NCBI GenBank assembly: GCA_049519175.1
Contig: JBEKQZ010000002.1
Coordinates: 6,782-70,781, forward strand
Source of the DNA: Candidatus Levyibacteriota bacterium
GTDB taxonomy: Bacteria; Patescibacteriota; Microgenomatia; Levybacterales; UBA12049
Reading direction: 5' to 3'
Length of the DNA: 64,000 nt
In this document: one piece after another, positions 3,871 through 18,638 of the stretch
How the letters are laid out: every line of letters starts with the position of its first letter
Position numbering within the stretch: position 1 is the first letter of the stretch
Made by a program: the position numbers and the translations under genes
The notes under the pieces: generated by a model
Databases searched by the model: none
The model's input: the letters and a program-made list of their open reading frames with translations, nothing else
What the model was told of the DNA's origin: nothing

Positions 3871-4170
3871 TGTGTACAAGACCCGAGAACGTATTCACCG
3901 CGGCTTGCTGATCCGCGATTACTACCGATTCCGACTTCATGAGGTCAGGTTGCAGACCTCAATCTGAACTGAGGCGAAATTTAAGGGATTCGCTTGCCAT
4001 TGCTGGCTTGCAGCCCGTTGTTTTTCGCCATTGTAGTGTGTGTGTAGCCCAGGGTATAAGGGCCGTGCTGACTTGACGTCTTCCGCTCCTTCCTTCCCAG
4101 TAAAACTGGGACCGTCTCCAATGAATATTCAACATTGGACGCGGGTTGCGCTCGTTTCCCCACTTAAGGG

Positions 4171-4382: not shown

Positions 4383-5423
4383 TCTGCTTAACGTGTTAAC
4401 TTGCGCCTCATCGTTACCGAAAAAGCTAGCAGACATCGTTTACGGCTAGGACTACACAGGTATCTAATCTGTTTCGCTCCCCTAGCTTTCGTGCCTCAGC
4501 GTCAGGAAAATCCCAGATACTTGCCTTCGCCTTTGGTGTTCCAGTTAATATCAACGCATTTCACTGCTACATTAACTGTTCCAGTATCCCTGACAATCCT
4601 CAACATCGAAAGTATCATACCCACTCCCAAGGGTAAGCCTTGGTCTTTAAGGTATGACTTTTCGATGAGCCTACGCACACTTTACGCCCAATGAATCCGG
4701 ATAATGCTTGCATCCTACGTATTACCGAGACTTCTGGCACGTAGTTAGTAGATGCTTATTCTATAAACCGTGAAAGATTTATCAAAAGAAGTTTACGACC
4801 CTAAGGCCTTCTTCCTTCACGCGGCGTCGCTGCGTCAGACTTTCGTCCATTGCGCAATATTCCTAGTTGCTGCCATCCGTAGATGTACTGCCCGTATCTC
4901 AGTGCAGTTGTGGCTGATCGACCTCTCAGTCCAGCTACCCGTCATCGCCTTGGTGGGCTTTTACCCCGCCAACAAGCTGATAGGACGCAGGCTCATCCCT
5001 TGGCGCGAAGTTAATCGCTTTACAATAAATTGATTATGAACTATTACCCCAGCTTTCGCTGAGCTATGGTCCACCTAGGGGTAGATTCCTACGCGTTACT
5101 CACCCGTCTGCCATTTGGTCCTTGCGGACCCCATTCGACTTGCATGCCTAAGGCACGCCGCCAGCATTCATCCTGAACCAGGATCAAATTCTCAAAAAAA
5201 TTGTTCGGATTATCTTTAGGGAATTAATCCGAAAGAATTCCTACCACTTTTTGATCGAGAAGTTGTGACACTTCTTCACAAAAAGCTATCCTTTTCATTT
5301 TGTGCTGTACTTTTAAATTATCAAAGTGCAAAAACTTTTAAGAACCCCTATAAGACCAAAAATCCCGCCAAAGGCGGGGTGCAATCCCAAACTTATGGCG
5401 AAAGGTCTTACATATCTTTTACC

Positions 5424-5451
5424 ATTATAGATTAATTTTTAGCTTTGTCAA
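5424..5451 (-). promoter_or_regulatory. sigma70-like promoter for the 16S rRNA (TTGACA-N16-TATAAT on the minus strand)
   Basis: The reverse complement of 5424-5451 reads TTGACAaagctaaaaattaatcTATAAT, about 230 nt upstream of the mature 16S 5' end. Confidence 0.5.
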
Positions 5452-5473
5452 GGAGAAAAGGAAGAATTGAACT

Positions 5474-15649: not shown

Positions 15650-15964
15650 TTAGGAGGATTCGTAGGGCTCAAGCCACATATTAGTCTTTAAAGTTGGAGT
15701 CGCGGTTGGCTTAATTCCTAAACTTACAAGCGGCAAAGGGACGTCACGCTTTACGGGAGTGGCAATTTCAAAATCCGCAAAATCTATACCGTATTTATTT
15801 AAACGGTATGGAGGTCTTGCTACGGTTACCAGTTCACGACGGTATATTTCTCCCTCCGGAGTAGCACTAACTAACCAAAATACAGCGCCCTTCTTAACTT
15901 CGCCGTTTTGCATAACCCTTCTAGGGCTTTCTTCTTGAGATGCATCTGTTTGCTCTGTTTTCAT
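15650..15964 (-). CDS. hypothetical protein (104 aa)
   Basis: Lies between the inserted cassettes and mreC. No motif. Confidence 0.45.
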   Translation of the reverse strand: MKTEQTDASQEESPRRVMQNGEVKKGAVFWLVSATPEGEIYRRELVTVARPPYRLNKYGIDFADFEIATPVKRDVPLPLVSLGIKPTATPTLKTNMWLEPYESS

Positions 15965-16023: not shown

Positions 16024-16326
16024 TCAAGCAGTTTCCTTATTAATTGCTTTCGGACGGATAAAATGTAAACCGGCCAATGCTTCAGGAGCTAATTTTAATT
16101 CGGGTTGACCATTAAAGGGCTTTTCTCCGTCAGAATAATCAATTTTCAATCTTATTCCTCGCTCATTAATATCCAGAACCGTCACCGGCCACCAAGGAGG
16201 TTCGTCAATATCCGGATTGCCGGACATAACGAGCAGATAACTTCCCCCTTGGGTGAGCCTTTTAAAAGCAATTTCTTCACCCATACCTTGACGGTATCTT
16301 TTTTGACCTTCAGATTCTAACCGCAT
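16024..16326 (-). CDS. hypothetical protein (100 aa)
   Basis: No motif. Confidence 0.45.
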   Translation of the reverse strand: MRLESEGQKRYRQGMGEEIAFKRLTQGGSYLLVMSGNPDIDEPPWWPVTVLDINERGIRLKIDYSDGEKPFNGQPELKLAPEALAGLHFIRPKAINKETA

Positions 16327-16375
16327 AAGGTATTTATTATAGCTGAAACTTAGTTATTCGTCAAACTATGGGTTT

Positions 16376-16400
16376 TTATTTGAGGCCGCCGATGACTTTA
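16376..16400 (-). repeat. direct repeat DR3: a non-coding remnant encoding ...LIKVIGGLK*, a duplicate of the mreB 3' terminus
   Basis: The minus-strand sequence aaagtcatcggcggcctcaaataa (KVIGGLK*) is preceded by an in-frame stop. 19 of 24 nt match the real mreB end at 17547-17570, and 16 of 18 match the Ndt-like gene end. Confidence 0.65.
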
Positions 16401-16401
16401 A

Positions 16402-16836
16402 TTAGCTATTGATGACTTCTTTTAACTCTATATTCTCCTTATCGTATTCAAATCTAATTCTCCATTTGTCAAAAAATCCATCTTGACCTAATATTCCGTA
16501 TGGTAAAGATTTCATTTCGTAACTAAATCCAATATAGGCTTTGTGCTCTATTCCGCCAATTTTGAACGATACGTTATGAAAGTATGCTTTTTGTGCTTCT
16601 CCCGAAGTGCCGTGGAATGTTAGCTCGTCTCCTTTGGTAACATCAAACCCCAACCTTTCCCCTATTTCTCCATGGAATACACAAAAATCTGCTCCGGAAT
16701 CTATTAAAACAAGATAGCTAAAATTTCCCTTCTTTGTTTCAAAGTCAATTTGGATGATTGGTCTTAGTGATGATTTTCGTTTAAAGTTTGGGTTTTCTTT
16801 GGGATTAAGGGGAAACTTACGATATCTAAAATTCAT
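16402..16836 (-). CDS. retropepsin-like aspartic protease (clan AA, DSG active site)
   Basis: LVLIDSGADFCVF carries the D-S/T-G-A signature, and the ~140-aa size fits single-domain bacterial retropepsin-like proteins. Confidence 0.7.
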   Translation of the reverse strand: MNFRYRKFPLNPKENPNFKRKSSLRPIIQIDFETKKGNFSYLVLIDSGADFCVFHGEIGERLGFDVTKGDELTFHGTSGEAQKAYFHNVSFKIGGIEHKAYIGFSYEMKSLPYGILGQDGFFDKWRIRFEYDKENIELKEVINS

Positions 16837-17030
16837 AAGATGTATGCACCGTAGTTTTTGGGGGCGCGAGTAACAATTGGATTAGAAATGCCTTTTTCAA
16901 TTGCTTTGTCCATAACATTATTGAAATTTTTGCCGGAGGCAACAACTTTTAGGTCATTTGGAGATAATACAACCCACTCATCAGAATACTTTTGTAATTT
17001 ACTTGATAGATCATTTAGTCTTGCTTTCAT
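16833..17030 (-). CDS. small hypothetical protein (65 aa), translationally coupled to the retropepsin-like protease
   Basis: The stop and start overlap in ATGA at 16833-16836. The protein is basic and has no motif I recognise. Confidence 0.5.
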   Translation of the reverse strand: MKARLNDLSSKLQKYSDEWVVLSPNDLKVVASGKNFNNVMDKAIEKGISNPIVTRAPKNYGAYIL

Positions 17031-17069
17031 AAATTTATGATATCACTTTTTAGATTAAAAACCAAATTT

Positions 17070-17090
17070 TTACTTGAGGCCGCCGGATTT
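17070..17090 (-). repeat. direct repeat DR2 (forms the last codons ...SGGLK* of the Ndt-like gene)
   Basis: ttacttgaggccgccggattt matches DR3 at 15 of 16 positions in its 5' part. Confidence 0.6.
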
Positions 17091-17546
17091 AGTTTTCAAT
17101 TTTGAGAAATAATTAAGATCCCCTTTTAAAAAGACAGGATTAATGCCAAAAATTTCCTCTTTGATTGGTAAATCAGCGGCGATGTCGTTGAGAATAAAAA
17201 TTGGCTTTTTGAAAAAATACGCCAAGGTAATTTCCATTAAAGTATTTCCGCCGATGTAGCCTTTGACGCCATTTTTGGCAAAATTTGTGACTAAAATTGC
17301 ATCCCCTTTGATAATTTTTTGAAAATGTTTATCTATCAAGGCTCTTTTTTTATGGTAATCCCCGGGATTTTTATACCATGTCTTGTGCGCGGCGACATCA
17401 AAATTATTATTTCGCTTCATCACTTTGGCAGTGGATGGCAAAATAACCTTGTAGCCAAGTTTTTTGAGCATTATTTGAATTGGAAAAAGGTCTTTATAGA
17501 ATGAGGCGCTGGAGCAGATAACAATGGTTTTTATCTTTTTCATCAA
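17070..17546 (-). CDS. nucleoside 2-deoxyribosyltransferase-like (Ndt/Rcl/DNPH1 fold) protein
   Basis: GYIGGNTLMEITLAYFFKKPIFIL matches the Ndt-family G-x-x-x-E-x-G-x-A-x-x-x-KP catalytic-Glu motif. The Rossmann-like N-terminus is KTIVICSS. It abuts the mreB stop with 0 nt spacing. Confidence 0.55.
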   Translation of the reverse strand: MMKKIKTIVICSSASFYKDLFPIQIMLKKLGYKVILPSTAKVMKRNNNFDVAAHKTWYKNPGDYHKKRALIDKHFQKIIKGDAILVTNFAKNGVKGYIGGNTLMEITLAYFFKKPIFILNDIAADLPIKEEIFGINPVFLKGDLNYFSKLKTKSGGLK

Positions 17547-17570
17547 TTACTTTAATCCGCCGATGACTTT
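17547..17570 (-). repeat. direct repeat DR1 = the genuine 3' end of mreB (…KVIGGLK*)
   Basis: ttactttaatccgccgatgacttt. The core ccgccgatgacttt is shared with DR3. Confidence 0.6.
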
Positions 17571-18638
17571 GACCCGTTGCAACAGCGAATCCTCTTCCAA
17601 CACTTTTCCGGTGCCGCGGACGACCGAAGTCGTTGGGTCTTCCGAGCGGATAACCGGTAAATGCGTTCTTTCCACGATTAAATTATCAAAACCCGGCAGC
17701 TGCGAACCCCCACCGGTTAGTAAAATGCCGTGCGTTAAAATATCGCTGGTTAATTCCGGCGGCGCGTCTTCCAAAACAGCGGCGATGGCATCAATAATTT
17801 GCGTTAATACCGGCGACAAAGCCTCTCTAACTTCCACTTCGGAAATCCTTAAACTTTTTGGCAAGCCTGTTTCAATATCGCGGCCCCTGATAATAGCTAC
17901 CTTTTCCTCGTCTTTTGGCTTATCGCTTGTGATTTGGGATTTGTGATTTGGAGCTTTCGCATAAGCACTACCGATTCTAATTTTTAAATCTTCTGCCGTC
18001 GCTTCACCAATCAACAACCCATGCCTTAACCTTATGTAATGAATAATTGCCGCATCCATCTCGTCTCCCGCCACTCTTAAGGATTTAGAAACGACAATTC
18101 CGCCCAACGAAATAACGGCAATTTCGGTGGTTCCGCCGCCGATGTCCACCACCATAATTCCGGTTGGGGCAAACACCGAGATATTTTCGCCGATGGCCGC
18201 CGCCATCGGCTCTTCAATTAAATAAGCCTGCCTGGCCCCGGCCGACAGTGCGGCTTCCCAAACCGCCCGTCTTTCTACCTCGGTCACTGAAGATGGAATA
18301 CCGATGACAACGCGCGGCCTTGAAAAATTGGCCGACAAAGGACTGTCCACTTCGTGCACTTTTTTAATGTAATGGGAAATCATCGCTAGCGTCGCGTCAA
18401 AATCGGAAATTACTCCGCCGCGAAGCGGCCTGACGGTGATAATCGAAGCCGGCGTTTTACCAATCATTTTTTTTGCTTCCGCCCCTATTGCAATTACTTT
18501 TTTAGTTTTTTTGTGCATCGCCACCACCGACGGTTCGCGGATAACAATCCCTTTGCCCCGGACAAAAACGAGCGTGTTGGCGGTGCCTAAATCAATACCA
18601 ATGTCATGGGAAAATAAAGAGAATATCTTATTAAACAT
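17547..18638 (-). CDS. mreB: rod shape-determining protein MreB (actin homologue)
   Basis: The phosphate-1 motif IGIDLGTANTLV and the actin-fold motifs DIGGGTTEIAV and LTGGGS are present. Confidence 0.95.
   Translation of the reverse strand: MFNKIFSLFSHDIGIDLGTANTLVFVRGKGIVIREPSVVAMHKKTKKVIAIGAEAKKMIGKTPASIITVRPLRGGVISDFDATLAMISHYIKKVHEVDSPLSANFSRPRVVIGIPSSVTEVERRAVWEAALSAGARQAYLIEEPMAAAIGENISVFAPTGIMVVDIGGGTTEIAVISLGGIVVSKSLRVAGDEMDAAIIHYIRLRHGLLIGEATAEDLKIRIGSAYAKAPNHKSQITSDKPKDEEKVAIIRGRDIETGLPKSLRISEVEVREALSPVLTQIIDAIAAVLEDAPPELTSDILTHGILLTGGGSQLPGFDNLIVERTHLPVIRSEDPTTSVVRGTGKVLEEDSLLQRVKVIGGLK

Follow-up and report, generated by a model that had tools for sequence, protein, structure and literature searches.

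The stretch of DNA considered here (the window) comprises 64,000 nucleotides (nt) of contig JBEKQZ010000002.1 from a Candidatus Levyibacteriota bacterium, and the element in question is a pair of small overlapping genes, both on the minus strand of the window, that lie between the cell-shape genes mreB and mreC. The first encodes a small basic protein and the second a single-domain retropepsin-like aspartic protease. On the minus strand the gene order is mreB (17547-18638), an open reading frame (ORF) of 158 amino acids (aa), the pair, two ORFs of 100 and 104 aa, mreC, mreD and PBP2; the coordinates of all other features are collected in Table 1. The ATG of the protease gene (16836-16834) shares bases with the last codon and the TGA stop (16835-16833) of the small ORF, so that the two genes overlap by 4 nt. 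An earlier note on this DNA had described a 65-aa basic ORF joined in this way, through ATGA, to a 144-aa protease ORF with a D-S-G-A active site, and the reading frames, the junction and the motif were all found to be as it had described them.

The small protein scores above the gathering cutoff for DUF5678 (PF18929; E=1.1e-7, 31.9 bits, cutoff 23.2) and on this profile match is a member of that family, which has no assigned function; PF18929 is the sole domain of its homologues. The protease likewise lies above the cutoff for Asp_protease_2 (PF13650; E=2.8e-8, 34.8 bits, cutoff 24.3), with further matches to gag-asp_proteas and RVP that are both below the Pfam threshold. It is not a member of the NCBIfam clan AA models TIGR02281 and TIGR03698, against which it scores 15.6 and 14.6 bits (cutoffs 57.95 and 57.35).

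Conservation and co-occurrence of the two genes

Two sets of loci were compared: 80 from species-representative genomes, picked by their protease gene, and 80 from metagenomes, picked by their small gene (79 of them with room downstream). In the first set the small gene was found directly upstream of the protease gene, on the same strand, in 78 of the 78 assessable foreign loci, the two exceptions lying at contig ends. In the second, a protease gene follows the small gene in 73 of the 79 loci (frameshifted in 4 of these 73), and 5 of the 6 orphan small genes keep recognisable protease remnants. Both families are of uniform size. The small protein has 14 close homologues and 659 that are found by profile search, all of about 65 aa, and when 1.84 billion representatives were searched exhaustively with a profile, 1,467 clusters (50% identity, E<=1e-3) were obtained, all short; the 177 homologues of the protease are mostly 141-146 aa long and share about 60% identity, 35 columns being invariant. 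No small protein is fused to a protease among the 659 homologues or the 150 best representatives. The earlier note had left it to profile searches to decide whether the small ORF is conserved and accompanies a retropepsin-like gene in other genomes, and these searches answer in its favour. The pairing is not due to chance, and the two genes almost certainly constitute a functionally linked, autonomous module.

The hosts span many lineages of the candidate phyla radiation (CPR, or Patescibacteria), ultra-small bacteria to which the window itself belongs, and large contigs of Chloroflexota and Actinomycetota also carry the pair. Many contigs labelled ‘uncultured Gammaproteobacteria bacterium’ or ‘Candidatus Saccharibacteria’ (for example those of loci L008, L010, L011, L013 and L022-L024, with near-identical modules) show CPR gene content; these labels look unreliable and were not used for host range. 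The surroundings of the pair are varied: 145 immediate flanking genes fall into 153 Pfam families, none of them dominant (GroEL 6, GNAT 5, HicB 2), and no conserved third gene was found among the 145. An abundant Parcubacteria variant of the pair is located among shuffled accessory genes. The mreB–mreC location is shared only by the closest relative, L001, whose MreB is 89% identical, and is a lineage-specific accident of insertion. In six Gottesmanbacteria-type loci (L017, L018, L022, L023, L024 and L026) the pair lies directly downstream of groEL and a terminator hairpin, a site that echoes the one after mreB, each lying where a housekeeping gene that is itself conserved has its 3' end; the two such loci that were examined (L017 and L026) showed no direct repeats on the flanks of the pair.

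Two loci have neighbours of another kind. In L057, two paralogous DUF5678/retropepsin pairs 3 kb apart bracket a HicB/HicA pair, with a gene for a GIY-YIG nuclease after them (Pfam-confirmed). In L155 (798-1511), an orphan DUF5678 gene without a protease remnant is followed by a DUF4258/DUF2283 gene pair (also Pfam-confirmed). An origin of the module in a phage or plasmid was considered and rejected: the pair occurs in 1 viral contig of 2.9 million, tblastn searches of PLSDB plasmids and INPHARED phages gave no match, and the pair has no PHROG match.

Promoter and translational coupling

An extended -10 element, TGATATCAT, lies immediately ahead of the small ORF. The same pattern, TGnTAnnnT, ends 6-9 nt before the small-ORF ATG in 48 of 77 homologous loci, compared with 0-4 loci in the other upstream 10-nt bins, an arrangement which implies that the module is transcribed from a promoter of its own into an mRNA that is leaderless or nearly so. 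In the window a palindrome, TGATATCA, overlaps the -10 element. Motifs resembling a Shine-Dalgarno sequence precede 11 of 78 small ORFs and, among the protease starts, 4 of 58. The hosts from Chloroflexota and Actinomycetota (L015, L046, L057, L072 and L074) have a GGAGG-type ribosome-binding site instead of the leaderless layout, and the same module appears to have been adapted to two modes of translation initiation.

The junction between the two genes is tight. All 58 offsets that were scored lie between -35 and +17 nt, and the commonest, as in the window, is -4 nt (20 of 58), which agrees with the proposal in the earlier note that the genes are translationally coupled. Since the junctions are tight and Shine-Dalgarno motifs are rare before the protease, translation of the protease most likely depends on ribosomes that terminate on the small ORF. 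The same note had placed the pair inside the cell-shape operon. By position this is so; functionally it is not, because the module carries its own promoter, and only L001 shares the site.

The protease

On its profile score, its signature motifs and its predicted fold, the protease is classed as a retropepsin-like enzyme of clan AA. The AlphaFold2 (AF2) model has the retropepsin fold, is all-beta apart from one short helix and is of high confidence (predicted local distance difference test, pLDDT, 91.8; predicted template modelling score 0.84). A sequence search of the PDB with the protease found no relative, and the structural search with Foldseek placed at the top, with probability 1.0, APRc of Rickettsia conorii and the proteases of HIV-1, SIV, FIV, EIAV and foamy virus. 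The absence of this fold on structural prediction had been named in the earlier note as an outcome that would count against its reading; the model and the Foldseek matches point to its presence. No membrane segment is predicted in the protease, and its model is without a hydrophobic helix.

The R25-P26 dipeptide, which we take to align with R8-P9 of HIV-1 protease, is invariant in the 24 closest homologues; across 122 pairs the arginine is kept in 72% and the proline in 99%. Because this dipeptide is so highly conserved and the catalytic motif is retained in all of the 122 pairs, the protease is probably catalytically active. The proteases also share a conserved Met start followed by the motif M-[NK]-F-x-Y. 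An association of the kind seen in Ddi1, with a ubiquitin-like (UBL) domain, was looked for and not found: there are no fusion proteins among the homologues, and the model of the small protein has no ubiquitin-like match in the PDB.

The small protein and its C-terminal tail

The AF2 model of the small protein (pLDDT 82) consists of a helix (residues 9-13), two strands (19-22 and 29-33), a second helix (36-45), a further strand (52-55) and a tail of low confidence, the last nine residues having a pLDDT of about 50 when the protein is modelled alone. This tail is nonetheless the most conserved stretch of the protein. It reads TRAPKNYGAYIL, without variation, in close relatives and P-x5-Y-[IV]-[GL] across the family, P57 and Y63 being nearly invariant among DUF5678 homologues. 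The conservation is at the level of amino acids, with free synonymous change (three codons for Thr, four for Pro and six for Leu). The domain is always C-terminal and, in the 150 best representatives, the tail stands at the extreme C-terminus; many subfamilies have a variable extension of 0-8 residues beyond Y-[IV]-[GL], and the subfamily of the window ends exactly at Y-I-L. That the most conserved stretch is modelled with low confidence in the protein alone marks the tail as a segment that folds on a partner.

Searches for relatives of the fold gave little. Neither by sequence nor with Foldseek did the small protein have a significant match in the PDB, and a ubiquitin-like, AbrB-like or other known fold was rejected on these grounds. 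In BFVD the model matched only other DUF5678 proteins or uncharacterised ones, including two Pandoravirus proteins with DUF5678 annotation or fold (A0A2U7UG46 and S4VV29; probability 0.99, template modelling score about 0.63); judged from these models, the DUF5678 fold would also be present in giant viruses. Derivation from MreB was considered in view of a weak match of the small-protein hidden Markov model to the MreB of the window (E=0.005) and a Foldseek match to an MreB chain (probability 0.23), and was dismissed as chance, since hhalign gave a probability of 4.9% over 24 columns. The P-K-N-Y-G of the tail recurs in the ribosomal protein eL8/L7a of eukaryotes, in its N-terminal region (PDB 7oyc_G1; hmmsearch E=0.3), which was taken as coincidence.

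Covariation of the tail with the protease and decay of the protease gene

Mutual information was calculated across 122 paired sequences (about 99 effective). Coupling between the tail and the protease positions that are homologous to the substrate-contact residues of HIV-1 protease was 0.052, against a null of 0.007 +/- 0.0105 (p=2e-4); no such enrichment was found for the globular part of the small protein (p=0.97), and that of the tail persists when the Y-[IV]-G tail subclass is taken by itself (p=6e-4). In the protease, coupling to the tail is highest at residues 111, 75, 82, 72, 109, 108, 112, 77 and 78, which belong to the predicted flap and to residues 108-112. The latter correspond to the ‘80s loop’ in HIV-1 protease and show the strongest covariation. 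On balance, it is fairly likely that the tail engages the protease cleft.

The two genes are not lost alike. Thirteen loci carry a disrupted protease or none at all. They represent about 10 independent events and include a premature stop, frameshifts, internal deletions or truncations, C-terminal stubs and complete absence (Table 1), and the small ORF is intact in all 13. The opposite state, an intact protease without an intact small gene, was found in none of the 78 assessable loci.

Proposed mechanism and alternative explanations

Taken together, the conserved tail that is disordered in the protein alone, the covariation of this tail with the cleft and the one-way decay of the protease lead us to favour, tentatively, a role for the small protein as an inhibitor or antitoxin-like partner rather than as a substrate or activator of the protease. 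The pair forms a horizontally mobile, autonomous bicistronic module that is transcribed from its own promoter and in which the DUF5678 protein is translated first. Synthesis of the protease would be confined to ribosomes that come straight from completing the small protein. The protease would be an active, soluble homodimer of the retropepsin type, on which the small protein would dock by its folded alpha/beta domain. The otherwise disordered tail, P57-x5-Y63-[IV]-[LG], would thread into the substrate cleft under the flap and keep the enzyme from acting, plugging it in the way of a pseudo-substrate or a product. As the chain of the window subfamily ends in Y-I-L-COOH, its tail would fill only the non-primed subsites and leave nothing on the primed side to cleave. 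The protease would in this way be a potentially harmful effector and the small protein its neutraliser, and the enzyme would be released once the small protein is depleted or displaced. We infer that the module is toxin–antitoxin-like, without filing it as a toxin–antitoxin system; the neighbourhoods of L057 and L155 lend this mild support. A bolder and more doubtful proposal, which we nevertheless consider worth stating, is that the pair founds a toxin–antitoxin or abortive-infection family with a retropepsin effector, restrained by a product-mimicking tail, abundant in the reduced genomes of the CPR and spread as a leaderless cassette that carries its promoter.

Several observations weigh against the inhibitor or antitoxin-like role. 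The fold of the small protein matches no known antitoxin or DNA-binding fold in searches of the PDB and BFVD, and autoregulation of the module is for this reason unsupported. In PADLOC-DB v2 the best matches of the protease, to the candidate models PDC-M08B (E=0.014) and PDC-M52B (E=0.042), are not significant and the small protein has no match; in PHROGs there is no significant match for the pair, which is also nearly absent from viral contigs, plasmids and phages. The protease is unusually conserved for a toxin, its identity of about 60% being maintained across Microgenomates, and this could indicate a conserved cellular role. As to the covariation, mutual information from so few effective sequences is noisy, the strongest signals within each protein are artefacts of gaps or clades, and the test was not blind, in that the set of cleft residues was fixed after the first mutual-information list had been seen. 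A tail in the cleft would, besides, suit a substrate as well as an inhibitor. The asymmetry of decay is modest: if about 10 events fell on targets of 435 and 195 nt, the small gene would escape them all with a probability of about 0.02, and some of the frameshifts may be assembly errors in metagenome-assembled genomes.

Of the alternatives, the one to be taken most seriously, although we consider it unlikely, is that the small protein is a dedicated substrate which the protease cuts within or after the tail, so as to mature, activate or destroy it. Covariation of the tail with the substrate cleft is what this would predict, the variable extension after Y-[IV]-[GL] resembles a processing site, and operons that join a retropepsin-like protease to its substrate have precedent: SpoIIGA shares an operon with its substrate pro-sigma-E, and ImmA/ImmR is a further protease–substrate precedent. 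However, the protein of the window subfamily ends at Y-I-L, so that cleavage would remove one or two residues at most, and the extensions seen elsewhere are as long as the stretch that is read through into the protease gene (-11, -17 and -35 nt of overlap) and look like by-products of the overlap. A requirement for processing also sits poorly with small genes that outlast the loss of the protease, never the reverse, and there is no conserved third gene nearby on which a matured product could act. The earlier note had offered three roles for the small ORF, namely inhibitor, antitoxin-like regulator or substrate; the evidence narrows these to a partner whose C-terminal tail would engage the active-site cleft, with the first two tentatively preferred and the last less favoured.

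It is rather improbable that the small protein is instead an activator, assembly factor or adaptor, which assists the folding, dimerisation or substrate delivery of a non-toxic physiological protease. Strict co-occurrence and coupled translation would suit such a partner, as would the high conservation of the protease and the fact that the pair is usually present in single copy among housekeeping genes (groEL, gyrB and glyA). On the other hand, the pair occurs patchily, as an accessory element, in variable contexts, and has moved between phyla; an activator would be useless without its enzyme, and yet the protease has repeatedly been lost and the partner kept; the tail is coupled to the active-site cleft and not to the terminal strands that form the dimer interface of retropepsins; and the pair adjoins classical toxin–antitoxin modules in L057 and L155. 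A fusion in the manner of Gag-Pro, in which programmed slippage into the -1 frame, close to where the small ORF ends, would yield a protease that releases itself, was suggested by the window: relative to the small ORF the protease is read in the -1 frame, CCC AAA AAC occurs shortly before the stop, and at least 8 codons ahead of the protease ATG are free of stops in the protease frame. This is ruled out by the junctions, whose variable offsets put the protease in all three relative frames among homologues, and by the lack of a conserved slippery site, since the A-rich stretch shows no conservation of its nucleotides; a conserved Met start and motif of its own is present in every protease, and neither the 659 homologues nor the 150 best representatives include a fused protein.

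If the small protein does neutralise the protease through its tail, several consequences follow. Bacterial retropepsin-like proteases are almost uncharacterised, and at least about 1,470 clusters now annotated only as ‘DUF5678’, together with ‘retropepsin-like aspartic protease’, would gain a function. An aspartic protease would join the effectors of toxin–antitoxin and immunity systems, and the small protein would be an example from nature of a genetically encoded protein that inhibits a retropepsin active site, of relevance to protease regulation and to inhibitor design. The pair would also provide a compact, testable handle on accessory genes of CPR bacteria, which resist routine culture.

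Cassette structure of the mreB–mreC gap

The last six or so codons of mreB and its stop occur three times in the window, once at the end of mreB itself and twice as direct repeats on either side of the pair (Table 1), and nowhere else in it. In L001 the corresponding copies lie at 4009-4034, 4742-4767 and 5433-5458. From the second to the third copy the window and L001 are about 91% identical, and immediately outside these limits they are unrelated; homology thus starts and stops exactly at the repeats, in keeping with the suggestion of the earlier note that the pair was acquired as one cassette between them. The mreB–mreC gap as a whole reads as an array of cassettes separated by the mreB-end repeat. 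No integrase or recombinase is visible near the array, and no presence/absence polymorphism at the mreB–mreC site was seen in contigs with exact matches to MreC. In L001 the first cassette holds a different gene, of 232 aa and on the opposite strand, with no Pfam match; the second, which contains the pair, is common to both. The G + C fraction of the pair is 0.35, compared with 0.48 for mreB and 0.43 for the whole window.

The 158-, 100- and 104-aa ORFs have no match in Pfam, NCBIfam, PADLOC, PHROGs or the PDB. By eye, the sequence pattern of the 158-aa ORF recalls nucleoside 2-deoxyribosyltransferase-like Rossmann proteins. The 100- and 104-aa ORFs, which are preceded by a promoter-like sequence of their own, may form a further independent cassette.

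Table 1. Features of the gene pair and its surroundings, with the lesions and elements recorded at homologous loci. Positions are those of the window unless a locus is named.
Feature	Position	Strand	Remarks
Small ORF	16833..17030	-	ATG start, 65 aa, DUF5678 family, basic, pI 9.6
Protease ORF	16402..16836	-	ATG start, 144 aa, single-domain retropepsin-like aspartic protease
ATGA stop/start overlap	16833..16836	-	No Shine-Dalgarno-like motif before protease start
C-terminal tail of small protein, T54-R-A-P-K-N-Y-G-A-Y-I-L65	16836..16871	-	Proposed cleft-binding element
Catalytic motif of protease, D46-S-G-A-D50	16687..16701	-	D-[ST]-G-[AS]-D in 122/122 non-redundant homologues
Second retropepsin signature, G114-I-L-G-Q-D119	16480..16497	-	Hydrophobic-hydrophobic-Gly
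Predicted flap hairpin, residues 72-84	16585..16623	-	Tip G76-T-S-G79; positions 72, 75, 77, 78 and 82 covary with small-protein tail
Extended -10 element	17037..17045	-	Ends 6 nt before small-ORF ATG
Direct repeat copy 1	17547-17570	-	3' end of mreB
Direct repeat copy 2	17067..17085	-	mreB 3' end, ..GGCGGCCTCAAGTAA; upstream cassette boundary
Direct repeat copy 3	16373..16399	-	AAAGTCATCGGCGGCCTCAAATAA, orphan copy of mreB 3' end; downstream cassette boundary
158-aa ORF	17070-17546	-	G + C fraction 0.35; last codons (..GGLK) and stop supplied by repeat copy 2
100-aa ORF	16024-16326	-	Acidic; absent from L001
104-aa ORF	15650-15964	-	Acidic; absent from L001
Near-consensus sigma-70-type promoter, TTGACG-17-TATAAT	16336-16364	-	11/12 matches; after repeat copy 3, ahead of 100- and 104-aa ORFs
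Elements of locus L057	1419-2023, 2268-2768, 4804-5426		One protease DTGAD, the other DSGAD
Protease premature stop			L012
Protease frameshifted			L027, L035, L104, L112/L116/L118
Protease internal deletion or truncation			L138, L154, L160
Protease reduced to C-terminal stub			L124, L143
Protease absent			L155

Comparison with known systems

Full-text literature searches found no description of a DUF5678/retropepsin pair, in agreement with the statement of the earlier note that no function is known for such pairs. Both domains were already catalogued; what is new is their association and its likely logic. In its architecture the module resembles type II toxin–antitoxin systems such as HicAB and VapBC, with two small overlapping genes, the smaller of them first, coupled translation and an own promoter. 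It shares with them a patchy, cross-phylum spread in variable contexts, orphan ‘antitoxin’ genes that remain after loss of the effector, and occasional clustering with classical toxin–antitoxin pairs. Like antitoxins of the VapBC type, the small protein is folded in its N-terminal part and ends in a conserved segment that lacks order in the isolated protein; unlike the partners in type II systems, it has no recognisable DNA-binding fold, and the module is not detected by PADLOC models. To our knowledge, no toxin of a toxin–antitoxin system and no defence effector is an aspartic protease of the retropepsin type.

The best structural match of the protease is APRc (RC1339) of R. conorii, a bacterial retropepsin-like protease of known structure (PMC4140852; PDB 5c9f; Foldseek E=1e-4, probability 1.0). 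Both enzymes belong to clan AA, have a single domain and carry one catalytic Asp in each chain. Sequence identity between the two is about 22%. APRc is embedded in the membrane through an N-terminal transmembrane region, is autoprocessed and acts at the cell surface, and no DUF5678 partner has been described for it; the 144-aa protease of the window is predicted to be soluble, and has neither the N-terminal transmembrane region of APRc nor the membrane domain of SpoIIGA. It can also be compared with the short prokaryotic retropepsin-like ORFs of COG3577/COG5550 and TIGR02281/TIGR03698, which have no assigned function and for which, in contrast to the pair, a DUF5678 partner has not been reported. 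Of prokaryotic single-domain clan AA peptidases in general it has been written that ‘little is known’ (PMC2642776). Proteins of about 100 aa with a retropepsin domain accompany type III CRISPR loci in Sulfolobales (PMC3973734), whereas no CRISPR genes are found near the pair in the window. Unlike Ddi1, the window protease has no UBL domain.

Parallels in gene organisation are also offered by SpoIIGA/pro-sigma-E and ImmA/ImmR, in each of which the gene for a protease adjoins, and is co-transcribed with, that for a small protein to which the protease binds specifically. In these systems, unlike here, SpoIIGA is a membrane protein with its substrate gene downstream, ImmA is a metalloprotease, and both partners are DNA-binding regulators with known targets. 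In fold and in the D-[ST]-G-A and G-R/Q-N/D signatures the protease is like that of HIV-1. The HIV-1 transframe peptide, p6*, is encoded upstream of the protease; with its C-terminal residues it fills the active site and inhibits the enzyme competitively, in the manner of a product. This inhibition is the direct mechanistic analogue of the plug that is proposed for the DUF5678 tail. In retroviruses, however, the inhibitor is covalently part of the polyprotein and is removed by autoprocessing, whereas in the module described here it would be a separate protein with a folded domain of its own, produced without a frameshift fusion.

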